A DNA stretch of 64,000 nucleotides, taken from the NCBI RefSeq assembly GCF_054482525.1, contig NZ_CM137006.1; one strand, written 5' to 3'. Of the stretch, positions 333 to 56,229 are shown piece after piece. A model generated the notes under the pieces. The model was given only the letters and a program-made list of their open reading frames with translations. It did not search any database and was not told the DNA's origin. The translations under genes and the position numbers were made by a program. Each line of letters starts with the position of its first letter. Within the stretch, counting starts at the first letter, position 1.

Positions 333-363
333 ACGGCCTCTGCGGAGGCCGTCACTCTTTATT
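333..363. terminator. stem-loop (acggcctc/gaggccgt) plus T-rich tail between convergent pntB and tqsA
   Basis: 8-bp perfect inverted repeat 333-340/345-352 followed by cactctttatt; seen directly. Confidence 0.5.
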
Positions 364-1386
364 GAGATCGCTTAACAGAACGGCGATGATTTGACCTCCC
401 GCTGTTTGTTCAAGCGCAATTTTGACAATAATTGTCAACGGCACGGAAAGCAGCATACCCACCGGTCCTAACAACCATCCCCAAAAAATCAACGACAAAA
501 ATACCACCAATGTGGAAAGCCCCAGCCCACGCCCCATGATGCGTGGCTCCAGAATATTGCCGAAGACCAGATTAATCAGCAGATATCCCGCCAGCACCAG
601 CAACGCTTCGTAGAAGCCATTAAACACCAGTACCTGAGCGATAGGGGGGATTGCCGCGAGAACTGAACCAATATTAGGGATGTAATTAAGCGCAAAGGCC
701 AGCAATCCCCAGACAAAAGCGAAGCGAACATCGAGTGCGGCGAGCATCGCCCAGGCGACCAGGCCGGTGATGATGCTGATGGCTGTTTTCAGCACCAGAT
801 AATGAGACACACTGTCAATCGCACGCTGAATCGCCGCCATCCCTTCAACCGGACGCGCCATCATTTGCTGAAATTTTCCGGGCAATTGTGGCACTTCGAG
901 CAGCATAAACAGCACCGTCAGCAGCAATAAAAAGATTGATGACATGGCATTAGATAACTGCGTCAATAAGTTGGTGAGCAACGTCATCGCCGCGTTCGGA
1001 TCAATGTAATGCGCCAGTTGGTCAACTGAGACGTCAATCCCTACGCGTTGCAACAACGGTTCAAGAGCTTGCAGCGGCGTCATAATAGAGTTGCGATATT
1101 GCGGTAACGTCCGCGTCAATTCGTTGAGCGCGGAACCCAGATAAGCTAACAGCAACACCATCGCCATCACGATGATGGTCATCAAAATCGACACCGCCAG
1201 TACACGCGGCACTCGCCAGCGGACCATGTGTTGCACCAGCGGGTTAAGAATAACAGCAATAAATAATGCGAGAATAAACGGCACGATGATCTCGGCGGCA
1301 AAACGGATACCGCAGAGAATAATGACCAGCATTCCCAACATAATGACGATTTTTAGGCCATTGAGCGTGATGATCGGCTTTGCCAT
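352..1386 (-). CDS. tqsA: AI-2 exporter TqsA (YdgG), AI-2E family membrane protein
   Basis: 344-aa hydrophobic ORF; sequence and position next to pntB match K-12 TqsA as recalled. Confidence 0.88.
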
Positions 1387-19951: not shown

Positions 19952-20156
19952 GGACATAAATCCATTTTATCAATAAGATACAAGGAAGTGTCAGCTGACA
20001 AAAGATATTCTATTTCATCTTTTGTCAACCATTCACGGCGCAAATATACGCCTTTTTTTGTGATCACTCCGGCTTTTTTTGATCTTTATACTTGTATGGT
20101 AGTAGCTCAGTTGCGTAGATTTCATGCATCACGACAAGCGATGCAAGGAATCGAAC

Positions 20157-21371
20157 ATGAAGATCGTAAAGGCTGAAGTTTTTGTTACCTGTCCGGGGCG
20201 TAATTTCGTCACATTAAAAATCACCACTGAGGACGGTATTACGGGCCTTGGGGATGCCACCCTCAATGGACGTGAGCTTTCCGTGGCCTCTTATTTGCAG
20301 GATCACCTTTGTCCGCAGCTTATTGGTCGCGATGCGCACCGTATCGAAGATATCTGGCAGTTTTTCTATAAAGGTGCTTACTGGCGTCGCGGTCCGGTTA
20401 CGATGTCGGCCATTTCAGCGGTTGATATGGCGCTGTGGGATATTAAAGCCAAAGCTGCCAACATGCCGCTTTACCAGTTACTCGGCGGCGCGTCTCGTGA
20501 AGGGGTGATGGTTTATTGCCATACCACCGGTCACAGTATTGATGAAGCTCTGGATGATTATGCCCGTCATCAGGAGCTGGGATTCAAAGCCATCCGCGTG
20601 CAGTGCGGAATCCCTGGTATGAAAACCACCTACGGCATGTCGAAAGGTAAAGGTCTGGCTTATGAACCCGCAACCAAAGGACAGTGGCCGGAAGAGCAGC
20701 TGTGGTCGACGGAGAAATACCTCGATTTCATGCCGAAATTGTTTGACGCGGTACGTAACAAGTTTGGTTTTAATGAACATTTGCTGCATGACATGCACCA
20801 TCGCTTAACGCCTATTGAAGCGGCGCGCTTTGGTAAAAGCATTGAAGATTATCGCATGTTCTGGATGGAAGACCCGACGCCTGCGGAAAACCAGGAATGC
20901 TTCCGTCTCATTCGCCAACATACCGTCACACCCATCGCGGTGGGTGAAGTCTTCAACAGCATCTGGGACTGCAAGCAACTGATTGAAGAGCAACTTATCG
21001 ATTATATCCGCACTACGCTGACCCACGCGGGTGGCATTACCGGTATGCGCCGGATTGCCGATTTTGCTTCGCTGTATCAGGTACGTACTGGCTCACACGG
21101 TCCTTCCGATTTGTCACCAGTCTGCATGGCTGCGGCGCTGCACTTTGATCTGTGGGTCCCCAATTTCGGTGTCCAGGAATACATGGGTTATTCCGAACAA
21201 ATGCTCGAAGTCTTCCCGCACAACTGGACTTTCGATAACGGCTATATGCATCCGGGAGACAAACCGGGTCTTGGCATCGAATTCGATGAAAAGCTGGCGG
21301 CGAAATATCCCTATGAACCTGCTTATCTGCCAGTCGCACGTCTGGAAGATGGCACGCTGTGGAACTGGTAA
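20157..21371 (+). CDS. rspA: starvation-sensing protein RspA (enolase-superfamily mannonate dehydratase family)
   Basis: 404 aa from [17 protein letters not shown] with AAGGAA RBS; track ORF starts 11 codons upstream. Confidence 0.92.
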
Positions 21372-21382
21372 GGAGTAAGATA

Positions 21383-22402
21383 ATGAAAAGCATTTTAATT
21401 GAAAAACCGAATCAACTGGCAATTATCGAACGTGAAATACCCACCCCGTCAGCGGGTGAAGTACGAGTAAAAGTGAAACTTGCCGGAATTTGTGGTTCAG
21501 ATAGCCATATTTACCGTGGGCATAATCCTTTTGCGAAATATCCGCGCGTCATTGGTCATGAATTCTTTGGCGTCATTGATGCAGTGGGTGAAGGCGTGGA
21601 AAGCGCCAGAGTCGGTGAACGCGTTGCTGTCGATCCGGTGGTCAGCTGTGGGCATTGCTATCCGTGCTCTATAGGTAAGCCGAACGTTTGTACGACACTG
21701 GCTGTATTAGGTGTGCATGCTGACGGTGGTTTCAGTGAATATGCCGTGGCTCCGGCAAAAAATGCGTGGAAAATTCCTGAAGCAGTGGCCGATCAATATG
21801 CGGTGATGATCGAACCTTTTACCATTGCGGCGAACGTAACCGGTCATGGTCAACCGACTGAAAATGATACCGTTCTGGTTTACGGTGCCGGTCCAATCGG
21901 TCTGACGATCGTTCAGGTATTAAAAGGCGTCTATAACGTTAAAAATGTGATTGTTGCCGATCGCATTGATGAACGACTGGAAAAAGCGAAAGAGAGCGGG
22001 GCTGACTGGGCGATTAATAACAGCCAGACACCGCTTGGCGAGATTTTCGCTGAAAAAGGCATCAAGCCGACATTAATTATCGATGCGGCTTGTCATCCTT
22101 CAATCCTGAAAGAAGCCGTAACGCTGGCTTCTCCAGCGGCACGTATTGTATTGATGGGGTTCTCCAGTGAACCGTCTGAAGTGATTCAGCAAGGAATTAC
22201 CGGAAAAGAACTCTCTATTTTCTCTTCACGCTTAAATGCAAATAAATTCCCGGTCGTTATCGACTGGTTAAGTAAAGGGTTAATTAAACCAGAAAAACTA
22301 ATTACCCATACGTTTGATTTCCAGCATGTTGCTGATGCCATTAGTTTATTTGAACAGGATCAAAAGCATTGCTGCAAAGTCTTACTCACTTTTTCTGAAT
22401 AA
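21383..22402 (+). CDS. rspB: starvation-sensing protein RspB (Zn-dependent alcohol dehydrogenase family)
   Basis: 339 aa from MKSILIEKPNQ with AAGGAG RBS right after rspA stop; GHEFFG and GxGxxG motifs. Confidence 0.92.
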   Translation: MKSILIEKPNQLAIIEREIPTPSAGEVRVKVKLAGICGSDSHIYRGHNPFAKYPRVIGHEFFGVIDAVGEGVESARVGERVAVDPVVSCGHCYPCSIGKPNVCTTLAVLGVHADGGFSEYAVAPAKNAWKIPEAVADQYAVMIEPFTIAANVTGHGQPTENDTVLVYGAGPIGLTIVQVLKGVYNVKNVIVADRIDERLEKAKESGADWAINNSQTPLGEIFAEKGIKPTLIIDAACHPSILKEAVTLASPAARIVLMGFSSEPSEVIQQGITGKELSIFSSRLNANKFPVVIDWLSKGLIKPEKLITHTFDFQHVADAISLFEQDQKHCCKVLLTFSE

Positions 22403-22459
22403 TACCAATAACGGCGAGTAAGTAGTACGCATCTTACCTCTTTTTTAGAGATAACCATT

Positions 22460-23827
22460 ATGACAATAGAAAAACACGAAAGAAGCACTAAGGATTTGGT
22501 GAAAGCAGCAGTATCGGGATGGCTGGGCACTGCGCTTGAATTTATGGATTTCCAGTTATATTCGCTCGGCGCAGCGTTAGTGTTTCATGAAATATTTTTT
22601 CCTGAATCATCAACGGCAATGGCGTTAATTCTGGCAATGGGAACCTACGGTGCAGGTTATGTGGCGCGTATTGTCGGAGCATTTATTTTCGGCAAAATGG
22701 GCGACAGAATCGGGCGTAAAAAAGTGCTCTTTATTACCATCACTATGATGGGGATCTGTACCACCTTAATTGGTGTGCTGCCGACCTATGCACAAATTGG
22801 TGTGTTTGCGCCAATTTTGCTGGTGACGCTGCGTATTATTCAGGGATTGGGTGCAGGTGCGGAAATTTCTGGTGCCGGTACGATGCTGGCGGAATATGCG
22901 CCAAAAGGTAAGCGCGGAATTATCTCCTCATTTGTGGCTATGGGAACTAACTGCGGAACCTTGAGCGCAACGGCAATCTGGGCCTTTATGTTCTTCATTC
23001 TCAGTAAAGAGGAACTGCTGGCGTGGGGATGGCGTATACCGTTCCTGGCGAGCGTTGTCGTGATGGTCTTTGCTATCTGGTTGCGTATGAATCTGAAAGA
23101 AAGCCCGGTCTTTGAGAAGGTTAACGACAGCAACCAACCGACAGCAAAATCTGCACCTGCTGGTAGCATGTTCCAGAGCAAATCCTTCTGGCTGGCAACA
23201 GGGCTGCGTTTTGGTCAGGCTGGTAACTCCGGTTTAATTCAGACTTTCCTCGCAGGCTATTTAGTGCAGACGTTATTGTTTAACAAAGCAATTCCAACAG
23301 ATGCATTGATGATCAGTTCGATTCTCGGCTTTATGACCATTCCGTTCCTTGGTTGGTTATCCGATAAAATAGGTCGCCGGATCCCGTATATTATTATGAA
23401 TACCTCTGCGATTGTGCTGGCGTGGCCAATGCTTTCTATCATCGTAGATAAAAGCTATGCCCCGAGCACCATTATGGTTGCACTGATTGTGATTCATAAC
23501 TGTGCGGTGCTGGGATTATTTGCTCTGGAAAACATTACCATGGCAGAAATGTTCGGCTGTAAAAACCGCTTTACCCGGATGGCCATTTCTAAAGAAATTG
23601 GTGGTCTTATCGCTTCCGGTTTTGGTCCTATCCTGGCGGGTATTTTCTGCACCATGACGGAATCCTGGTATCCGATCGCCATTATGATCATGGCATATTC
23701 AGTGATTGGTTTAATCTCTGCGCTGAAAATGCCAGAAGTGAAAGACCGTGATTTAAGTGCACTGGAAGATGCCGCGGAAGATCAACCGCGTGTTGTAACA
23801 GCTGCGCAACCTTCAAGAAGTCTGTAA
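22460..23827 (+). CDS. ydfJ: MFS-type transporter YdfJ, full-length 455 aa
   Basis: uninterrupted ORF 58 bp downstream of rspB; from memory this gene is split by Qin prophage in K-12 MG1655. Confidence 0.85.
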   Translation: MTIEKHERSTKDLVKAAVSGWLGTALEFMDFQLYSLGAALVFHEIFFPESSTAMALILAMGTYGAGYVARIVGAFIFGKMGDRIGRKKVLFITITMMGICTTLIGVLPTYAQIGVFAPILLVTLRIIQGLGAGAEISGAGTMLAEYAPKGKRGIISSFVAMGTNCGTLSATAIWAFMFFILSKEELLAWGWRIPFLASVVVMVFAIWLRMNLKESPVFEKVNDSNQPTAKSAPAGSMFQSKSFWLATGLRFGQAGNSGLIQTFLAGYLVQTLLFNKAIPTDALMISSILGFMTIPFLGWLSDKIGRRIPYIIMNTSAIVLAWPMLSIIVDKSYAPSTIMVALIVIHNCAVLGLFALENITMAEMFGCKNRFTRMAISKEIGGLIASGFGPILAGIFCTMTESWYPIAIMIMAYSVIGLISALKMPEVKDRDLSALEDAAEDQPRVVTAAQPSRSL

Positions 23828-23916
23828 ATCCTCCATCCCTTCTCTTACCGGAGAGGGGATTTTTTATTCATATAACAAAACATGCAGCTTGCCATATTTA
23901 TATTTAAGGAATTGTT

Positions 23917-25377
23917 ATGGGAAATAATTTGTTATCAGCAAAAGCGACGCTCCCTGTTTATGATCGTAATAACCTGGCCCCAAGAATTGTTCATTTAGGC
24001 TTTGGTGCATTTCACCGTGCGCATCAGGGCGTGTATGCCGATATTCTTGCTACGGAACATTTCAGTGACTGGGGATATTATGAGGTCAATTTAATCGGCG
24101 GCGAACAGCAAATTGCCGATTTACAACAGCAAGATAATCTTTATACCGTTGCGGAAATGTCGGCCGATGCGTGGACGGCTCGCGTCGTTGGCGTCGTTAA
24201 AAAAGCCTTGCACATACAAATAGATGGCTTAGAAACCGTGCTGGCTGCGATGTGTGAACCGCAAATCGCGATTGTCTCTCTGACAATCACCGAAAAAGGG
24301 TATTTCCACTCTCCGGCGACCGGACAGTTAATGCTCGATCACCCGATGGTCGTTGCCGACGTACAAAATCCCCACCAGCCGAAAACTGCAACAGGGGTGA
24401 TTGTCGAGGCGCTGGCTCGCCGTAAAGCGGCAGGTCTTCCCGCATTTACCGTCATGTCATGTGACAACATGCCAGAAAACGGTCATGTTATGCGTGACGT
24501 TGTCACTTCCTACGCGCAAGCTGTTGATGTAAAACTGGCACAATGGATCGAAGAAAACGTGACTTTCCCATCAACAATGGTGGACCGTATTGTGCCCGCA
24601 GTGACGCAGGATACGCTGGCGAAAATCGAACAACTTACCGGTGTGCGCGATCCTGCGGGCGTTGCCTGTGAACCTTTCCGCCAGTGGGTAATAGAAGATA
24701 ACTTTGTTGCCGGACGTCCGGAATGGGAAAAAGCGGGAGCCGAACTGGTTAGTGATGTGCTGCCTTATGAAGAGATGAAGTTGCGCATGCTCAACGGCAG
24801 TCATTCATTCCTGGCGTATCTGGGGTATCTTGCCGGATATCAGCACATTAATGACTGCATGGAAGATGAACATTATCGTCATGCAGCGTATGCCTTGATG
24901 TTGCAGGAACAAGCGCCGACGTTGAAAGTGCAGGGCGTTGATTTGCAAGATTACGCTAACCGATTAATTGAACGCTATAGCAACCCGGCGCTACGTCATC
25001 GAACCTGGCAGATTGCGATGGATGGCAGCCAGAAATTGCCACAGCGGATGTTGGATTCTGTTCGCTGGCATCTGGCGCATGACAGCAAGTTCGATCTGCT
25101 GGCGCTGGGCGTCGCAGGTTGGATGCGTTATGTCGGTGGTGTTGATGAACAGGGAAATCCGATAGAAATCAGTGACCCACTGTTACCTGTTATTCAGAAG
25201 GCTGTACAAAGTAGTGCCGAAGGGAAAGCGCGCGTCCAGTCATTGCTGGCGATTAAGGCGATCTTTGGTGATGATTTGCCAGACAATAGCTTGTTTACTG
25301 CAAAAGTGACGGAAGCGTACTTGTCTTTATTAGCGCATGGTGCGAAAGCGACCGTGGCGAAATATTCCGTGAAGTAA
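23917..25377 (+). CDS. ydfI: mannitol-dehydrogenase-family oxidoreductase YdfI
   Basis: 486 aa; N-terminal Rossmann-like [12 protein letters not shown]; matches YdfI as recalled. Confidence 0.88.
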
Positions 25378-31398: not shown

Positions 31399-31449
31399 GC
31401 TCCGTTTAACATTCATTGAGAAAACTGATGCTACTGTGTCAACGATCCG

Positions 31450-31541
31450 TTATCAGTGCAGGAAAATGCCTGTTAGCGTAAAAGCAAAACACAAATCTAT
31501 CCATGCAAGCATTCACCGCCGGTTTACTGGCGGTTTTTTTT
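31450..31541 (+). ncRNA. mgrR: candidate small RNA MgrR (PhoP-regulated), 3' end defined by hairpin ccgcc/ggcgg plus T8
   Basis: intrinsic terminator 31516-31541 in the dgcZ-mgtS gap where MgrR maps in K-12; 5' end not determined; could instead be the dgcZ terminator. Confidence 0.35.
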
Positions 31542-31616
31542 CGCCGTCATAAAAATCAGGCCCCTTGTACAAAGTTGTAACAAGGGGCCGGTTAGGTGAG
31601 GGATTATCTCCGTTCA

Positions 31617-31712
31617 TTAGTCATCCCATTTGTGGCTGAAATACGCGGCCAGAAAACCAGAAAATAAAATTATTCCCAGTACGGCCATAAAAATATTCAT
31701 ATTACCCAGCAT
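31617..31712 (-). CDS. mgtS: 31-aa small membrane protein MgtS (YneM), MLGNMNIFMAVLGIILFSGFLAAYFSHKWDD
   Basis: ATG with GGAGG Shine-Dalgarno; TAA stop followed by hairpin 31561-31589; below ORF-track cutoff. Confidence 0.8.
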   Translation of the reverse strand: MLGNMNIFMAVLGIILFSGFLAAYFSHKWDD

Positions 31713-46743: not shown

Positions 46744-47502
46744 TTACTCCGTACGCCGGGCAACAATAAACAGACGCGGAAATGCCAGCAGTATCTGTCC
46801 GTTCTCTTGCAGTGGATACTGCTCTTCCAGCATCTGATGGTAGCGCGTAAGAAAATGCTGCTGTTCGCTCTCGGTCAGATCCTGTAACCACGGACGTAAT
46901 CCAGTGGCGGTCACCCAATCGATAATCGCCTGGTGCGACGGCATCTGGTGATAGTAGGTGGTTCGCCAGATATCGACCTCACATCCGGCTTCGCTCAAAA
47001 TATCGTAGTAAGCATGAACGCCAGCCAGCGGCTCACGCCCGCGATCCGGATAATTTTGTTCCCAGGCGACTTCGCGCATGAGCACATGGGTTGGCTCTAG
47101 CCAGTTATCTGGCATCTGTACTGCCAACACACCATGCGAATTAAGTAAAGAAACCAGATGAGGGAACAATTCGTAGTGGTCGGGCAGCCATTGCAGTGAG
47201 GCATTAGCAAAAATCAGATCGAGTGTCTGTTCCGGTTGCCAATTGCGGATATCTGCTTCCACAAACTGGCAGTCCGGCAAAGCACTGCGCGCTTCGGCAA
47301 CCATCGCCGGAGACGAGTCGATGCCCGTTATCCTGGCCGCAGGCCAACGTTGATGCAGCAGGGCGGTGCTGTTACCTGGGCCACAGCCAAGATCGGCAAC
47401 GTATTTGATATTCTCCAGCGGCACTCTGGCAAGCAGCTCCACCGCCGGACGCGATCGTTCAGCGGCAAAGTGCAGATATAAAGAGGGGTTCCAGTCAGAC
47501 AT
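46744..47502 (-). CDS. tam: trans-aconitate 2-methyltransferase Tam
   Basis: 252 aa with SAM-binding motif DLGCGPGN. Confidence 0.9.
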
Positions 47503-47557: not shown

Positions 47558-47848
47558 TCACGGCATCAACCCATTGAACAGACGTTTTTTACGCGGCCCG
47601 GTCATTAAAGATTCCAGTTTCGCGACACAGGTTTTGTAGTGGGGCGTGGTTTTATGGAACGCCACTGCGTCTTCATCTTTATAGGCTTCGTAGATAAAAA
47701 AGCGCGAATTCACTTCCGGGTCCTGTAAGACATCGAAGCGCAAATTGCCTTCTTCCTGTACCGAGCCCAGGTGGTTCTGGCGAAAAACTTCGATAAACTC
47801 GTCAACCTTGTCTTCATGAACGTTAATTTCAACCAGTGTGACGTGCAT
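47558..47848 (-). CDS. lsrG: phospho-AI-2 isomerase LsrG
   Basis: 96-aa ORF at 3' end of lsr operon. Confidence 0.9.
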
Positions 47849-47871
47849 AATTCTTCTCCTTAAATCCGCAG

Positions 47872-48747
47872 TTACTGTTTTTCACTCAGATAGAGTTCAT
47901 ATGCCCGATCAGCCGTTTCGTTATGGTGTACCACCGCCTGTACGGCTTTCATCATCGCCACCGGATGGTCAGACTGGAAAATATTACGCCCCATATCCAC
48001 ACCAGAAGCGCCCTGATCGATAGCCTGCCAGCACATTTCAAGCGCTTCGCGCTCCGGTAACTTTTTACCGCCAGCAATAACAATGGGTACCGGACATCCG
48101 GCAACAATCCGTTCAAAACCTTTATCGACATAATAAGTTTTGATAATCTGCGCCCCCATTTCAGCGGCGATTCGGGTAGCCAGCGAGAAATAACGCTGAT
48201 CGCGCACCATATCTTTGCCCACGCCTGTCACGGCCATGGTGGGCATTCCCGCTTTCATTCCGGCATCGACCAGTTGAATAATATTTTTGATCGACTGGTG
48301 TTCATATTCGCTACCGATATAAACCTGCGCCGCCACCGCGCAACTGTTCAGGCGCACGGCGTCATCCATCGATAACGCCACGGCTTCATTACTTAATTCC
48401 GCCAGAATAGAGTTTGCACCTGACGCCCGCAGTACCACCGGCTTATTGGTCGCCGGGGGGACTACGCTGCGCAAAATGCCGCGCGTACACATTAATACAT
48501 CGGCATGTTCAAACAGCGGGGCGATATTTATATCAATGCGTTCAAGTCCGGTAGTCGGCCCCTGAAAATAACCATGGTCAAAGGCCAGCATCACGGTTTT
48601 ACCCGTTTTCGGATTAAATATCCGCGATAAGCGTGACTGCATTCCCCAATCCAGTGCACCGCAACCTTTCAGGGTAAAAGGGATATTTTGTTGCGGTTGA
48701 TCGGTACGAAAATCTTTACCATCTTTAATATCGTCTAAATCTGCCAT
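47872..48747 (-). CDS. lsrF: 3-hydroxy-5-phosphonooxypentane-2,4-dione thiolase LsrF (aldolase family)
   Basis: 291-aa translation recognised. Confidence 0.9.
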
Positions 48748-48773
48748 AACGTACTCCGGTTAAGTAATGCACA

Positions 48774-49796
48774 TCAGAAATCGTATTTGCCGATATTCTC
48801 TTTGTTGAATATCACGCGCTCCGGTAACAGTACGATGCCATTACCATCCGCTTCGTAGTCATAGCCCTGAACGCTGTTTGGCGAGACTTCCACCTGACCT
48901 ACGCCCTGAATATCCAGCTTGTCGCCCGTTTTCATTGATCCTTTTTTCAATAATTCATCCGCGACATAAACTGAAATTTTGCCTTGCTGAACCACATCCC
49001 ACAGGCCAAATTCTTTCACCGTGCCGCGTTCCACATACGGACGCATCACGTTTGGCGTACTGAATCCGACAATCGCAACTTTGTCATTTTTCAGGTTTTC
49101 TGCGGCTTGTGCGGCAGCGGGCAGGGCGTTGGCGTCGGGGGCGATAATGGCGTCGAGATCGCTATACGCTTTTAATATTCCTTCTGCGGTTTGTAACGAT
49201 TTAGTGGCATCGTTATAGCCAAACTGCGTAGTGACAATTTCCCAGCCTGGATGCTCTTTGGCGATTTTCGCTTTCGCTTCTTTCACCCACTGGTTTTGGT
49301 CCGTAACGGTGGGGCTTGAGTAGAAAAACGCGACTTTGGCTTTGTCTTTATTCACCTGACGCGCCGCCATATCCACCAACATACCTCCCAACTGGGCGGG
49401 CGTTCCCTGATTAATGTAGTAAGAGCGGCACTCCGGTTTAGTATCAGAGTCCCAGGTCAGCACTCTCACACCACGTTGCATGGCGCGTTTCAGTGCCGGA
49501 CACAAGCCATCAGGCGAAACCGCAGAAACGATAATGGCGTTATAACCCTGATTGACGAAGTTATTAATCAACTGTACCTGACCAGAAACACTGGGTTCTG
49601 TCGGCCCGTCGTAGGTCACATCAACGCCCAGCTCTTTACCCGCTTGTTGTGCGCCGTTGCCACCGCTGGTAAAAAATCCCACGCCAACCAGTTTGGGAAT
49701 AAATGCAATACGCTCTGCGGCCTGCACATTCATAGAGATTGCGGCAATGCCAAGCGCGCTAAGTAAGGCGATTTTCTTAAAGCGATGAAGTGTCAT
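48774..49796 (-). CDS. lsrB: periplasmic AI-2-binding protein LsrB
   Basis: 340 aa with signal peptide. Confidence 0.9.
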
Positions 49797-49807
49797 GAAG
49801 ATATCCT

Positions 49808-50800
49808 TTATGGCAATGGGTTATTGGCCCGACGCGCCAGCCACTCTTTAATTTGCTGGCGATGCAGGCTAACGGAACGACCTACGACAACGACGATAAG
49901 TAGCGCACCGGAAAGGGCGCTGGACACCTGATTTGGCACTCCTGCCATTTGCAAACCTTGTTGCAAATATCCCACTAATAAAACCGCAATGGCGGTGCCG
50001 ATAATGGAACCGGAACCACCATAAATATTGGCACCGCCAAGCACCACGGCGGTGATGGCGGGCATCAGAAACGACGCACCGAGATCGGAACGTGCTGATC
50101 CAAAATACGATACCAGCAGCACAGCGGCGACTGCAGACGCCAGCCCCGTCATGGCATAGAGCGCACATAAGGTGCGGTTAACTGGAATCGCGCTATAAAG
50201 CGCCACGCGCGGGCTTTGCCCAATCAAAAACACGTTACGTCCGGCATGGGTTTTATGCAGCCAGAGCCAGAAAACGAGGAGACATATCAGAAAGATAATC
50301 AGCGGAACGGGGAGTCCCAGCACATCCAGGTTAGCGAAATCTGTAAACGCCATCGGGAATCCACCAATACCTTCGTACCCCGTCGCTCCGGCCATCCCGG
50401 AAAGCAGCAGAGCGCTTCCGGCAAACAGATACAGCGTGCCAAGCGTAATCACCAGCGGGTTAACTTTGGTATAGATAATTAATCCGGCGTTGATCAGCCC
50501 GCACAATGCGCCGAGCAGTAAGGTCAGGAGAATCGCCAGCGGCATCGGCACACCACTTTGAAACAATACGCCCAATGCAATGGCGCAGAGGCCGATGGTC
50601 GAACCAAACGAAATATCGATCCCACCACTGACAATCACCATCGTCAGCGGTAGGGCGACAATGCCAATGCAGATAAAGTCACTGGTGCTGAACAGCAACA
50701 TATTGAGATCTAACATCCGCGGGTTAATTGCACCAAATGCAACAATCTCAATAACGAGCAGTGCGGCAAGAGCCAGTTCCCAACCGTAGCGAATACGCAT
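49808..50800 (-). CDS. lsrD: AI-2 ABC transporter permease LsrD
   Basis: 330-aa permease. Confidence 0.9.
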
Positions 50801-51828
50801 TACGCGGCCTCCCGTTTTTTACCTGACGAAGCGGGTTTAACGGATGGCGGTAGCATCATAAAGCGGGCATATTTTTGCCGCCGCAGATTACGTTCCAGCG
50901 CACAACGCAGGCGTCCATCAAACACCAGCACCGCCAGCAGAACCAGGCCCGCGATAAAATCATTCCACCATGCCGGAATGCGCAACAGCACCAGTACACT
51001 ATCGATCTGCGTCAGGAACCATGCGCCGAGTACCGCACCGATGATCGCGCCGGAACCGCCGAGCAAACTAATGCCGCCCAGCACGCAGGCTGCAATTGCT
51101 TTCATCTCCAGCCCGGTACCGGTCTGGTTGGGGATAAAACCAATCTGCGAAGCAAACACAATCCCCGCCAGTGCCGCCATGCAGCCGTTCAACGAAAATG
51201 CCACAATGCGAATGGCTTCCGTACGAACGCCCAGTTGACGAGCGCCCTGTAAATTATCGCCCGTGGCATAAAAACTGCGTCCAAACGCCGTCTTTGCCAG
51301 CAGCCAGGCCATAAATGCCACCAGAATTATCGTCAACCAACCAATCGCGGAAACGCCAAACAGCAGCGGGGCGGAGAGCTGTTTCAGTTCGGCGGGTAAC
51401 CCTTCAATCCATTTGCCGCCAGTCCACAGCAACATGATGCCTCTGTACAACCCTAACGTGCCAAGGGTGGCGACAATGGCAGGGATCTTTAGCCACGCGA
51501 CCAGGACACCGTTGAAAAATCCCGCGAGCAAACCAAGCAGTAAAGTCGCGACACAAGCAACAGGTAGTGAATACCCCGCGTTCAGTAACATCCCCAACAG
51601 CACCGCGCACATTCCGGTAATCGAACCCACTGAAACATCAATATTGCGCGTAAGCATTACCAGCGTCGCGCCCATTGCCAGCAGGATCAGGATTTGCGCG
51701 CTGCTATAAACCATGGTCAGCGTTTGCACACTTAAATACTGACGGTCGAGAAAACCGGGTAATAGAAACAGCAGCACCACCGCCAGCAGTGCCGTGATTT
51801 CACGGTTGTTCTGAATAAATTTCAGCAT
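50800..51828 (-). CDS. lsrC: AI-2 ABC transporter permease LsrC
   Basis: 342-aa permease; overlaps lsrA and lsrD ends. Confidence 0.9.
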
Positions 51829-53357
51829 GACGCCTCCTGACGCTGACTATCGCCGAAGGCAACGCGCATAATAGTCTCGACATTAATATCGCGCCCGGTC
51901 AGTGCAGAGTGGGCAATTTCGCCCTGATGCATCACATACACACGATCTGCCATCAGTTCGATCTCTTCGAGATCAGAGGAGATAAGCAGCACAGCCACAT
52001 TCTGTGCGGCGATGCTGCGCAACAGTTGGTAGATATCATTACGCGCCGAGACATCCACGCCGCGCGTCGGCTCATCGACAATCAATACTTGCGGCGAGGC
52101 TTCCAGGCATTTGGCAATCAGGATTTTTTGCTGGTTGCCACCGGATAATGTCCGTGCAGCTTGTTCCGGTTGGTTAAATTTAATATTCAGCGCCCGACGA
52201 TATCGTTCCAGGGTGGCATTATCTTTCGCGGTTTTCGCCCAGAATCCACGAAGGTTATGAGTAAGGGCGCAGACGTTCCAGGCCAGCGAAGCATCGAGAT
52301 TCAGTCCGGATGACTGGCGATCTTCCGGCAGATAAACCAGACCGCGCAGTAAACGTTCTCCAGTGGATAATTTATTGATCTCTTTACCATTCAGCATAAT
52401 GCGTCCGCCACGCAAAGTACGCAGACCATAGAGCGTCTCGGCCAGTTCTGTGCGTCCGGCACCCACCAGCCCAGCCAGACCCAGAATTTCTCCGGCATTG
52501 AGCGTCAGGCTGACATTCCTGAAACCTTCGCCGGTCAGATTTTCTAGTGTCAGCATCGACGTTCCCGCGGCATGTTGTGGGCGGTTGCCAGGTAATTCCA
52601 GCCATAATTTTTGGCTGGCAGAGAGCGATTTTTCCCGTAGCGCTGGCGTAATGGCCTGAATAATGTCGTCGGTAGACAGTTCGCTGGTTTTGCCGCTTAA
52701 GGCGATGGTTCCGTCGCGCATCACGCTAATTCGATCAGCAATCTGGCGAATTTCCGGCAGCTTATGCGAGATAAAAACAATACCCACGCCAGTAGCAAGC
52801 AGCTCTTGCAAGCGACGAAACAAGCGTTCGGTTTCCGCAGGGGTAAGCGAGGCGGTAGGTTCATCGAGGATCAGAATCCGCGAGTCGCGCATCAGCCCGC
52901 GGAGGATTTCCACCATTTGGCGATCGGCGACATCCAGCGATCCTGCCAGACTATGCAGATCAAACTGGCAGCCCAGCGCCGCCAGCAAGTTCTTCATTTT
53001 CTGCATGGAGAGCTGTTTTTTTGCCAGCCCAAACAGGATGTTTTCTTTTATCGACAGGCTTGGGAAAAGCAGCGGTTCCTGGGGAACGAGATAAATACCC
53101 AACTGATGAGCATGAACTGGCGTTAATCTGGTGTAGTTGTTGCCCCCAATCTCCAGCGTACCGCTATCAGCAGGGGTAATACCGGCAATAATCTTCATTA
53201 ACGTCGATTTACCGGCACCATTGCCGCCGAGCAGGGCGTGGACCTCCCCCTGATGCAACGTAAAATCGATGCCTTTCAGGACATTAACCCCTGAATACTG
53301 TTTATAAACCGAGCGGGCGCAAAGTAGCGGTAACGCGCGGGTATCACTCGTTTGCAT
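51822..53357 (-). CDS. lsrA: AI-2 ABC transporter ATPase LsrA (tandem ABC domains)
   Basis: 511 aa with two Walker A motifs ([18 protein letters not shown]). Confidence 0.92.
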
Positions 53358-53521
53358 ATTTCCCCCGTTCAGTTTTGCAGGTGAGTTTTGAACAAATGTA
53401 TTTCTGCTTTTAATTTGTTCATAACCTTAGGTGGACATTGCACATATTTCCGACGAATAGATCACAATTTATGCTATTTTGATTTTCACGGTTGCGTTTG
53501 TTCATGCTCGTAGAGTCAAAC

Positions 53522-53537
53522 TGTGGTTGCCATCACA
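53522..53537. promoter_or_regulatory. candidate cAMP-CRP site TGTGG-N6-TCACA in the divergent lsrA/lsrR control region
   Basis: one mismatch to TGTGA-N6-TCACA, read directly; lsr expression is known to need CRP; site not otherwise verified. Confidence 0.45.
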
Positions 53538-53605
53538 GATATAAATGCGCAATAACTGAACAATTGCATTAAAGATTTAAGTATGTTCAAAGTGAAGAAT
53601 GAATT

Positions 53606-54559
53606 ATGACAATCAACGATTCGGTAATTTCAGAACAGGGAATGTGTGAAGAAGAACAGGTCGCGCGGATTGCGTGGTTTTACTACCACGACGGGCTGAC
53701 CCAGAGTGAGATCAGCGATCGTCTCGGCCTGACCCGTTTGAAAGTGTCGCGATTACTGGAGAAAGGGCATCAATCCGGCATTATTCGCGTACAGATTAAT
53801 TCTCGCTTTGAAGGCTGTCTGGAATATGAAACACAATTACGTCGTCAGTTTTCGCTGCAACATGTCCGGGTGATCCCAGGGCTTGCGGATGCTGATGTCG
53901 GCGGGCGACTAGGGATAGGCGCGGCGCATATGTTGATGAGTTTACTTCAACCACAACAGATGCTGGCGATTGGTTTTGGCGAGGCAACCATGAATACGCT
54001 GCAACGCTTAAGTGGTTTTATTTCGTCACAGCAAATTCGCCTGGTCACGCTCTCCGGTGGAGTCGGTTCTTATATGACGGGTATCGGGCAGCTTAACGCG
54101 GCGTGCAGTGTGAATATTATTCCGGCTCCGTTGCGGGCATCCTCCGCTGACATTGCCCGTACGCTAAAAAATGAAAATTGCGTCAAAGATGTTCTGCTAG
54201 CCGCGCAAGCAGCGGATGTGGCGATTGTCGGCATTGGGGCTGTGAGTCAACAAGACGACGCAACAATCATTCGCTCCGGCTATATCAGCCAGGGCGAACA
54301 GTTAATGATTGGTCGAAAAGGGGCTGTTGGCGACATTTTAGGCTACTTTTTTGATGCAAAAGGTGACGTTGTCACGGATATCAAAATACATAACGAACTG
54401 ATTGGCTTACCTTTAAGCGCGCTGAAGACTATTCCCGTCCGGGTTGGCGTGGCAGGGGGAGAAAATAAAGCCGAAGCAATTGCCGCTGCAATGAAAGGCG
54501 GTTATATCAACGCACTGGTTACCGATCAGGATACTGCAGCGGCGATTTTACGTAGTTAA
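53606..54559 (+). CDS. lsrR: lsr operon repressor LsrR (SorC family)
   Basis: 317-aa translation recognised. Confidence 0.92.
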
Positions 54560-54636
54560 ATTTGCATGACCTATTACCGGGAATGATGGAGAACGTACAG
54601 AGGAACAGACAGAACGCATAAGCCGAGGATAATCTA

Positions 54637-56229
54637 ATGGCTCGACTCTTTACCCCTTCAGAATCAAAGTACTACCTGATGGCGCTGGATGCAGGCACCG
54701 GAAGTATTCGGGCTGTGATATTCGACCTGGAAGGCAATCAAATAGCAGTGGGACAGGCGGAGTGGCGGCATCTGGCAGTACCGGACGTTCCTGGTTCTAT
54801 GGAATTTGATCTCAACAAAAACTGGCAACTGGCGTGTGAGTGTATGCGCCAGGCGCTGCACAACGCCGGCATAGCCCCGGAGTATATCGCTGCCGTTTCG
54901 GCATGTTCGATGCGCGAAGGCATTGTTTTATATAACAATGAAGGAACACCGATCTGGGCCTGCGCCAATGTGGATGCCAGAGCGGCGCGCGAAGTTAGCG
55001 AACTTAAAGAACTGCACAGCAATACCTTTGAAAACGAAGTTTATCGCGCCACCGGACAAACGCTGGCTTTAAGCGCTATTCCCAGATTACTTTGGCTGGC
55101 GCACCATCGTTCTGATATCTACCGACAGGCGTCGACCATCACCATGATCAGCGACTGGCTGGCCTATATGCTCAGCGGCGAACTGGCGGTGGATCCCTCT
55201 AACGCTGGCACCACGGGACTTCTTGATCTAACCACCCGTGACTGGAAACCTGCATTGCTGGATATGGCCGGACTGCGGGCCGATATTCTTTCTCCTGTCA
55301 AAGAAACCGGCACATTGCTGGGCGTGGTAAGTTCACAAGCGGCGGAACTCTGCGGTCTGAAGGCGGGCACTCCGGTGGTCGTTGGAGGAGGCGACGTGCA
55401 ACTTGGTTGCCTGGGGTTAGGCGTTGTGCGTCCGGCACAAACCGCTGTTCTTGGCGGCACATTCTGGCAGCAAGTTGTAAACTTAGCCGCGCCGGTGACA
55501 GACCCAGAAATGAACGTGCGCGTTAATCCTCATGTTATTCCTGGCATGGTACAAGCTGAATCTATAAGCTTTTTTACCGGACTCACCATGCGCTGGTTCC
55601 GCGATGCTTTCTGTGCCGAAGAAAAACTGATTGCCGAACGTTTAGGCATCGACACCTATACGCTGCTGGAAGAGATGGCAAGTCGGGTGCCGCCTGGGTC
55701 GTGGGGCGTAATGCCGATATTCTCCGACAGAATGCGCTTTAAAACCTGGTATCACGCTGCGCCTTCCTTTATTAATTTGTCTATTGATCCGGATAAATGT
55801 AACAAAGCGACGTTGTTCCGTGCGCTGGAAGAAAATGCGGCGATTGTATCAGCGTGTAACTTGCAGCAAATCGCTGATTTCTCGAATATTCATCCTTCAT
55901 CGTTAGTCTTTGCAGGCGGAGGTTCAAAAGGGAAATTATGGAGTCAAATTCTCGCTGATGTCTCGGGATTACCCGTCAATATTCCGGTGGTCAAAGAAGC
56001 CACCGCATTAGGATGTGCCATTGCAGCTGGCGTCGGTGCCGGAATTTTTTCATCAATGGCAGAAACCGGAGAACGCCTGGTTCGCTGGGAACGGACGCAC
56101 ACACCAGACCCAGAAAAGCATGAACTTTATCAGGATTCACGCGATAAGTGGCAGGCAGTTTATCAGGATCAGCTGGGGCTGGTTGATCACGGGCTGACGA
56201 CGTCGTTATGGAAAGCGCCTGGGTTATAG
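54637..56229 (+). CDS. lsrK: autoinducer-2 kinase LsrK (FGGY carbohydrate kinase family)
   Basis: 530-aa translation recognised. Confidence 0.92.

Follow-up and report, generated by a model that had tools for sequence, protein, structure and literature searches.

Where the lsr locus has decayed in natural E. coli, the usual routes are frameshift, premature stop and truncation (PMC3595036). The copy in the window, that is, in the whole 64-kb stretch of DNA analyzed here, raises the question of whether a complete system for the uptake and processing of AI-2 has been kept, and whether it is controlled as it is in K-12. We tested the genes against each of these routes of decay, compared them and their control region with K-12 MG1655, and aligned the control region across genera. 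The locus is very probably a complete Lsr system of the canonical E. coli kind and, as far as its sequence indicates, apparently functional. It is an already known and ordinary locus, almost identical in sequence to that of K-12.

Gene content and integrity

The open-reading-frame calls gave eight lsr genes at 47558-56229, of which lsrACDBFG run along the minus strand and lsrRK along the plus strand (Table 1), in the canonical order of the two divergent units of MG1655 (b1511-b1518). In the profile search each protein matched its own NCBIfam equivalog from end to end, with a score well above the curated cut-off. The gene-by-gene comparison with K-12 MG1655 returned equal lengths, start codons and stop codons for all eight genes, and the alignment contained no frameshift or internal stop in any of them. 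The claim of eight full-length genes made by the first-pass annotation is therefore borne out, and the frameshifts that it had named as grounds for refutation are absent from the alignment with K-12. Its description of the junctions as overlapping or coupled holds for two of the six, namely lsrA/lsrC (7 nt) and lsrC/lsrD (1 nt, the lsrC stop lying on the lsrD start in TAATG). The other four have gaps, of 11 nt (lsrD/lsrB), 26 nt (lsrB/lsrF), 23 nt (lsrF/lsrG) and 77 nt (lsrR/lsrK).

Table 1. Positions of the genes and control elements discussed in the text.
Feature	Position	Strand	Evidence
tqsA, AI-2E family transporter, 344 aa	352-1386	-	NF008930, 670 bits (cut-off 318), residues 1-344
tam, trans-aconitate methyltransferase	46744-47502	-	position and length as K-12 tam
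lsrG, phospho-AI-2 (P-DPD) isomerase, 96 aa	47558-47848	-	NF007791, 190 bits (cut-off 135)
lsrF, 3-hydroxy-5-phosphonooxypentane-2,4-dione thiolase, 291 aa	47872-48747	-	NF006081, 560 bits (cut-off 297)
lsrB, periplasmic AI-2 binding protein, 340 aa	48774-49796	-	NF011937, 701 bits (cut-off 384)
lsrD, ABC permease, 330 aa	49808-50800	-	NF011612, 597 bits (cut-off 500)
lsrC, ABC permease, 342 aa	50800-51828	-	NF011961, 663 bits (cut-off 388)
lsrA, ABC ATPase, 511 aa	51822-53357	-	NF011967, 954 bits (cut-off 586)
Divergent lsrA/lsrR control region, 248 bp	53358-53605	.	gapless alignment with K-12
lsrA-proximal LsrR operator (p-lsrA box), TGAACA-N21-TGTTCA	53389-53421	.	12/12 half-site bases; named in PMC5137460 Fig. 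2
TGTGCAAT motif, putative CytR half-site beside CRPI	53437-53444	-	wild-type K-12 allele
CRPI, lsrA-proximal CRP box, TGTGATCTATTCGTCG	53451-53466	-	6/10, left half alone perfect; identical in K-12
Lone TGAACA half-site midway between operators	53499-53504	-	identity 0.95 across 10 lineages
CRPII, lsrR-proximal CRP box, TGTGGTTGCCATCACA	53522-53537	.	9/10 consensus half-site bases; identical in K-12
lsrR-proximal LsrR operator (p-lsrR box), TGAACA-N21-TGTTCA	53557-53589	.	12/12 half-site bases
lsrR, SorC/DeoR-type repressor, 317 aa	53606-54559	+	NF011947, 620 bits (cut-off 486)
lsrK, AI-2 kinase (FGGY family), 530 aa	54637-56229	+	NF008187, 1001 bits (cut-off 528)

The genes are 97.2-99.0% identical to those of K-12 MG1655 at the nucleotide level, with 0-8 amino-acid changes per protein and 24 in total over the eight. 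LsrA differs at eight residues and carries the Walker A motif and the LSGG signature; LsrC differs at four, LsrK at three, and LsrD at none. In LsrF (97.15% nucleotide identity, four residue changes) the catalytic lysine K203 is retained, the site being taken from PMC2728841. LsrB differs at 2 of its 340 residues, and all six AI-2 binding residues (K35, D116, D166, Q167, P220 and A222) are conserved. These six are the criterion for a true AI-2 receptor according to Pereira et al. 2009, as that work is quoted in PMC3386761. The lsrG gene has its K-12 length, three nucleotide differences and one substitution, Y51F, and its product matches PDB 3QMQ at 2e-62. Both solved LsrG structures have a tyrosine at this position; the change, which we also considered as possibly disabling, is conservative. 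LsrR carries A7V and N258D. We considered each as a disabling change and rejected both: position 7 is variable, and D258 is the state in most other genera.

The divergent control region

Between lsrA and lsrR the window differs from K-12 by three SNPs (53548, 53553 and 53581), all of which fall outside the CRP boxes and the operator half-sites; the sequences of CRPI and CRPII, of TGTGCAAT and of each of the four LsrR half-sites are those of MG1655. The CRP and LsrR boxes were located from what Hauk et al. 2016 give in their text and in a figure legend, combined with sequence scanning, and CRPI was placed by the statement in that text that it lies very near TGTGCAAT (PMC5137460). The K-12 order, as given in the legend of Fig. 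2, is p-lsrR-box, CRPII, CRPI, p-lsrA-box, the two CRP boxes standing between the LsrR boxes (PMC5137460). A full-text literature search for the CRP box sequences produced no match. Expression of lsr requires CRP, sites for which occur widely among the lsr promoters of Enterobacteriaceae (bioRxiv 10.64898/2026.06.09.730415). From the geometry we guess at a division of labor, with CRPII acting mainly at the lsrR promoter and CRPI mainly at that of lsrA. A sigma-70 consensus scan of the control region found no promoter-like hexamer pair, which fits a weak, activator-dependent promoter. Candidate -10 elements picked by eye (AACAAT for lsrR and TACATT for lsrA) were dropped as unsupported without transcription start-site data.

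We aligned 19 control regions from about eight genera, comprising seven named genera outside Buttiauxella and one unclassified Enterobacteriaceae genome. Invariant runs of at least 4 nt occurred nowhere but in the half-sites of the two operators (all four), in a single half of CRPII and in the better-matching half of CRPI. Both half-sites of the p-lsrA box are invariant, all 12 bases being kept in the window as in each of the 19 orthologous regions, and the spacing from operator to operator is 166-168 bp across genera. Citrobacter, Kluyvera, Superficieibacter, Serratia, Mangrovibacter, Edwardsiella and Izhakiella resemble the window in that lsrR and lsrA diverge from a spacer of about 248-251 bp; they share the two TGAACA-N21-TGTTCA operators, a CRPII-type palindrome and the GTGATC half of CRPI, and their LsrR proteins are 77-85% identical. 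Buttiauxella departs from this arrangement, with an LsrR only 64% identical, an intergenic region that is shorter, by estimate about 195 bp, in six of its seven loci (the gene starts being approximate), and a single operator that reaches 11/12. Within CRPI, all 10 lineages share the GATCAC found at 53460-53465. The motif TGTGCAAT, proposed as a CytR half-site, in which a G>A change strengthens the promoter (Hauk et al. 2016, PMC5137460), is weakly conserved across genera (identity 0.65) and is not conserved outside Escherichia.

CRPII has one mismatch to TGTGA-N6-TCACA, and such a site could in principle be a chance match with no part in lsr control, which would leave CRPI as the sole real activator site. 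At this stringency the pattern is not very rare: the 64-kb window holds five sites with at most one mismatch against 1.9 expected from shuffles. The abstract of Wang and colleagues from 2005 also reportedly speaks of 'a' CRP binding site, in the singular. The counts nevertheless give a CRP-like match in a given 248-bp stretch a chance of only about 0.01-0.02. The conservation of CRPII is moreover that of its half-sites (identity 1.00 and 0.94) and not of its 6-nt spacer, which drifts (0.35) across about eight genera, and the distance from the box to the midpoint of the lsrR-proximal operator is exactly 43.5 bp in 18 of the 19 regions, these being all the regions with a detected CRP-like match. 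As read from the alignment, this pairing of conserved half-sites with a fixed offset is the signature of a protein-binding site. The first-pass annotation had reported the same site, and in K-12 it occupies the orthologous position with identical sequence and is boxed as CRPII (PMC5137460); both LsrR operators and CRPI had escaped that annotation. A chance match is accordingly very improbable. It is also unlikely, if somewhat less so, that the locus is intact but regulated unlike that of K-12 through its alleles at 53581, 53548 and 53553, for example by looser LsrR repression. The SNP at 53581 lies in the spacer of the p-lsrR box, whose elements are AACAAT (53559-53564), TGCATTA (53565-53571) and AAGATTTAA (53572-53580) in the nomenclature of PMC5137460; it directly adjoins AAGATTTAA, and the K-12 base is common to all 18 other aligned sequences. 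In 12 of 14 up-mutants the gain in promoter strength came from changes in the p-lsrR box (restored over -237 to -197), the up-mutations were concentrated at -214 to -208, in the interval between AACAAT and AAGATTTAA, and Hauk et al. 2016 hold that bases near the defined elements matter too (PMC5137460). Yet the half-sites and the three named elements are unaltered in the window, and 620 of 4163 E. coli genomes, about 15% of those that have the locus, carry the 53581 allele. Because of this frequency we regard it as a standing polymorphism, a common natural variant.

One further element emerged midway between the operators. The TGAACA at 53499-53504 lies about 84 bp from each outer operator and between the two CRP boxes; the outer operators are here 168 bp apart, equal to 16 helical turns. 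Serratia sp. H1w and Edwardsiella hoshinae have a full third box (11/12) at exactly 83 bp from each outer box, and E. coli keeps only the TGAACA half of the third operator seen in these two. We tentatively suggest, as one possibility and not the favored one, that the lsr control region has three phased LsrR contact points, through which a tetrameric LsrR could loop or wrap the region and exclude CRP. In the literature consulted, two boxes alone are described.

Proposed working of the system

The steps of the mechanism are taken from the K-12 and Salmonella literature; the window itself shows which genes are present, in what order and at what lengths, as well as the key residues, the operators and CRP boxes, and how far these are conserved between genera. 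By analogy, extracellular AI-2 would be bound in the periplasm by LsrB, imported via the LsrACD ABC transporter and phosphorylated by LsrK. Phospho-AI-2 would then release the repressor LsrR from the two TGAACA-N21-TGTTCA operators, and because these flank the divergent control region, both lsrACDBFG(-tam) and lsrRK would be derepressed. The signal would end with isomerization of phospho-AI-2 by LsrG and cleavage by LsrF. Throughout, cAMP-CRP would be the needed activator, through CRPI near lsrA and CRPII near lsrR, between the operators. The signal synthase gene, luxS, is absent from the window. An intact sequence is no proof of function, and we infer that this strain probably takes up and degrades AI-2.

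A different reading concerns what such a system is for. It holds that Lsr serves carbon-regulated scavenging and catabolism of AI-2 rather than perception of a quorum signal, and that 'intact quorum sensing' would be the wrong label. The control region with its two conserved CRP boxes accords with this, as does the loss of the locus from many natural E. coli (PMC3595036; 23% of the complete genomes here). According to the argument of a 2026 preprint, cAMP-CRP gates lsr expression with PTS and non-PTS sugars alike, import of AI-2 alters cAMP as a non-PTS carbon source does, and AI-2 was perhaps originally a nutrient (bioRxiv 10.64898/2026.06.09.730415). On the other side, AI-2 as sole carbon source is reported to support the growth of neither S. 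Typhimurium nor S. meliloti (PMC3386761), and the label bears on biological role and not on encoded content, the molecular mechanism being the same either way. We find this reading doubtful, though it deserves more credence than the two alternatives for the control region, and we retain the description of a complete, canonical Lsr system.

Genomic setting and significance

Compared with K-12 MG1655 (lsrK-lsrR and lsrACDBFG-tam, b1511-b1519), the window agrees in gene set, gene order and orientation, in the length of each gene, in start and stop codons and in the geometry of the junctions, at 2-3% nucleotide divergence, 24 amino-acid substitutions and three control-region SNPs. The flanks are also the same, with tam, yneE and uxaB on one side and yneO and hipB on the other. 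The autotransporter gene yneO is intact in the window and a pseudogene in K-12. In the lineage of the window hipA is truncated. The tam gene follows lsrG in the same orientation after 55 nt, and no terminator-like site was found between the two; lsrACDBFG-tam is presumably co-transcribed, as EcoCyc reportedly lists it. An Rfam scan placed no RNA family in or adjoining the lsr locus.

The first-pass annotation had also associated the locus with the exporter gene tqsA. Its position at 352-1386 was confirmed, and the association was not: tqsA stands outside the lsr regulon and locus, at a distance of 46 kb here and of 67 kb in K-12, the value being smaller here because the Qin prophage is absent. 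It is a separate gene, unlinked to lsr, and its place in the window is incidental. The protein differs from that of K-12 by one substitution (S333I), matches PDB 7NB6 ('AI-2 transport protein TqsA') at 8e-208, and is annotated in MG1655, as TqsA (YdgG), 'autoinducer 2 exporter'. Subfamily and structure match predict the same role here; that role, from the 2006 work of Herzberg and colleagues, reportedly rests mainly on mutant phenotypes.

The lsr region is 100% identical to the annotated lsr loci of three other E. coli genomes. Collinearity of the whole window with 19KM1776 and SCU-102, both 100% identical over lsr, was rejected, as both carry a lambdoid prophage at ydfJ; in 19KM1776 an autotransporter is deleted besides. 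The window thus belongs to a different strain. At least 80% of the lsr region was found in 4174 of 5426 complete genomes, and about one quarter of complete E. coli genomes are without the full locus (see also PMC3595036). An intact copy predicts that the strain can remove AI-2 from its surroundings, and has little import beyond the description of the strain. From an otherwise known locus, the conserved central half-site is one small lead. Only one by-product, the footprint across genera, is of wider use; it shows at base resolution what has been constrained in this control region: the four LsrR half-sites, both CRP boxes and a fixed 166-168-bp phasing.

Gene content and integrity of the lsr locus

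The eight lsr reading frames of the first-pass annotation are exactly those in the ORF list for 46.5-57.5 kb. We compared them one by one with the K-12 reference (MG1655 1,596,000-1,610,000). Every gene has the MG1655 length, ATG start and stop codon, and no internal stop was found in any of the eight, in keeping with the claim that all are full length. Nucleotide identity is 97.15-98.97% and the junction geometry is that of K-12. The description of the junctions as overlapping or coupled applies to lsrA/lsrC (7 nt) and lsrC/lsrD (1 nt, TAATG), but not to the others, which lie 11-77 nt apart: within lsrACDBFG the three remaining spacers measure 11, 26 and 23 nt and all contain a Shine-Dalgarno-like sequence; the lsrR-lsrK gap is 77 nt.

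All nine proteins searched against NCBIfam (the eight Lsr proteins and TqsA) matched their own model best, at full length and with scores well in excess of the curated cut-off. The TqsA model is a subfamily model, the other eight being equivalogs. LsrB has all of K35, D116, D166, Q167, P220 and A222, the six residues by which genuine AI-2 receptors are told apart from rhamnose-type paralogues (PMC3386761), and LsrF retains the catalytic K203 (PMC2728841). The Y51F change of LsrG from K-12 is conservative; both solved LsrG structures have Tyr at this position. The N258D change of LsrR restores the residue of most other genera, and LsrR position 7 is variable.

A megablast search of 5,426 complete E. 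coli genomes identified the window as E. coli chromosome. The 8.67-kb lsr locus is ~100% identical in SCU-102, 19KM1776 and PCN033, where it is annotated as lsrK, lsrR and lsrACDBFG, and at least 80% of it is present in 4,174 genomes (77%).

Features of the window: lsr genes from the ORF list for 46.5-57.5 kb, with amino-acid changes relative to MG1655, and further genes and sites
Feature	Coordinates	Strand	Remark
tqsA	352-1386	-	344-aa ORF
ydfJ	22460-23827		uninterrupted 455-aa ORF
STnc560	31410-31623	+	Hfq-binding sRNA, 279 bits
lsrG	47558-47848	-	1 change
lsrF	47872-48747	-	4 changes
lsrB	48774-49796	-	2 changes
lsrD	49808-50800	-	0 changes
lsrC	50800-51828	-	4 changes
lsrA	51822-53357	-	8 changes
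lsrA-lsrR spacer	53358-53605		248 bp
TGAACA-N21-TGTTCA operators	53389-53421, 53557-53589		all four half-sites invariant
TGTGCAAT motif	53437-53444		proposed CytR site, mapped from PMC5137460
CRPI, TGTGATCTATTCGTCG	53451-53466		perfect left half only; mapped from PMC5137460
GATCAC of CRPI	53460-53465		invariant
Central TGAACA	53499-53504		lone half-site
CRPII, TGTGGTTGCCATCACA	53522-53537		9/10 match to TGTGA-N6-TCACA
One CRPII half	53533-53538		invariant
p-lsrR elements	53559-53580		mapped from PMC5137460
lsrR	53606-54559	+	2 changes
lsrK	54637-56229	+	3 changes
Autotransporter gene	56753-62173	+	intact, 1,806 aa
hipB, hipA fragment, ISNCY remnant	62384-64000		N-terminal part of hipA only

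The divergent lsrA-lsrR control region

The spacer has a gap-free alignment with its K-12 counterpart; the three differences are at 53548, 53553 and 53581. In K-12, its boxes run in the order p-lsrR-boxes, CRPII, CRPI, p-lsrA-boxes (Hauk et al. 2016, PMC5137460); the authors describe CRPI as 'very close' to the motif TGTGCAAT. AACAAT, TAATGCA and AAGATTTAA all fall within their p-lsrR box, which spans -237 to -197 relative to the lsrA ATG. Mapping of these boxes and motifs onto the window identified the CRP-like site proposed earlier as CRPII, the recognised lsrR-proximal box, and its K-12 sequence is identical. The start codons of lsrR and lsrA lie 76.5 bp and 172.5 bp, respectively, from the centre of CRPII. 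The earlier account of the region was thus right on CRPII, but had overlooked CRPI and both LsrR operators. A sigma-70 scan of the spacer gave no match, consistent with an lsr promoter that is, according to PMC5137460, very weak and dependent on an activator.

The window contains five matches to TGTGA-N6-TCACA of the CRPII kind, where 1.9 would be expected. Conservation served as an independent test. LsrR, used as query against a species-representative genome collection, found close relatives (63-97% identity) at 25 loci in other Escherichia, Citrobacter, Kluyvera, Superficieibacter, Serratia, Mangrovibacter, Izhakiella, Edwardsiella and Buttiauxella; one distant match (30%) was left out. lsrA is divergent from lsrR in all 25, and the spacer is ~248-251 bp in every genus but Buttiauxella. 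Nineteen spacers were aligned with MAFFT, and counts were made on this set collapsed to 10 lineages. Just six stretches of at least 4 nt are invariant: the four operator half-sites, GATCAC of CRPI and one CRPII half. The CRPII half-sites have identities of 1.00 and 0.94, compared with 0.35 for the 6-nt spacer between them and 0.53 for the remaining control region, and a CRPII-type match occurs in 18 of the 19 regions, its centre at an unvarying 43.5 bp from the operator on the lsrR side. This cross-genus conservation and fixed offset rule out a chance match and support CRPII as a probable functional site. The putative CytR motif is not conserved (identity 0.65).

The operators are 166-168 bp apart, centre to centre, in every non-Buttiauxella genome. 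The lone TGAACA midway between them is also conserved (identity 0.95). Two genomes, those of Serratia sp. H1w and Edwardsiella hoshinae, have a complete third box (11/12) there, with this TGAACA as its left half and each outer operator exactly 83 bp away. We speculate that this half-site and the 168-bp (16-turn) phasing may reflect a higher-order LsrR-DNA complex. Position 53581, within the spacer of the lsrR-proximal operator and directly adjoining AAGATTTAA, is G in the window and A in K-12; the K-12 base is common to all 18 other aligned sequences. The window's allele (exact 56-mer) occurs in 620 of the 4,163 E. coli genomes having that part of the locus, and is thus a common one. Buttiauxella spp. 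(seven loci) have an LsrR only 64% identical and a spacer of an estimated ~195 bp in six loci and 317 bp in the seventh, the gene starts being approximate. One perfect TGAACA-N21-TGTTCA operator was detected there and no second, which indicates a control architecture unlike that of the other genera.

tqsA and other neighbours

The tqsA assignment was borne out by an ORF with a full-length TqsA-model match; the protein differs from that of K-12 by one residue (S333I) and matches the solved structure 7NB6. tqsA is a mere chromosomal neighbour of lsr, and the two form no 'system' in any genomic sense. They are 46 kb apart in the window and 66.6 kb apart in MG1655. The 20.4-kb difference matches the Qin prophage, which splits ydfJ in K-12. 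No Qin-type prophage is present at 20124-25377 (rspAB, ydfJ, ydfI). In SCU-102 and 19KM1776, with lsr loci identical to that of the window, ydfJ is the site of a lambdoid prophage, which assigns the window to another strain of their lineage.

Directly downstream of lsrK is the autotransporter gene, annotated in SCU-102 as 'ECSE_1600 family autotransporter'. Its K-12 counterpart, yneO, is a pseudogene (97.0% nucleotide identity, 1 nt longer overall) with frame-1 stops from codon 1326 on, and in 19KM1776 the gene is largely deleted. At the hip position, where SCU-102 has identical sequence, its annotation gives hipB, then only the N-terminal hipA fragment and after it an ISNCY transposase remnant; K-12 has an intact hipBA pair. 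STnc560, the sole Rfam match at the gathering threshold in the whole window, corresponds to MgrR. In related genomes, the small genes mgtS and mgtT are annotated on the strand opposite to it, in overlap with it.

The Lsr system of the strain

In the K-12 and Salmonella literature (PMC5137460, PMC3182856, PMC3595036 and a 2026 preprint), read together with the MG1655 product names, AI-2 is taken up by LsrB and LsrACD and phosphorylated by LsrK; phospho-AI-2 releases LsrR from its operators and is broken down by LsrG and LsrF, and cAMP-CRP is required as activator. All the findings fit this established model, and from its near-identity to K-12 the strain would be expected to follow it. The locus is in its textbook, typical state. 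The Lsr receptor and processing arm is evolutionarily labile (PMC3595036), and the sole informative aspect is that this strain is among the approximately three-quarters of E. coli that keep it complete.
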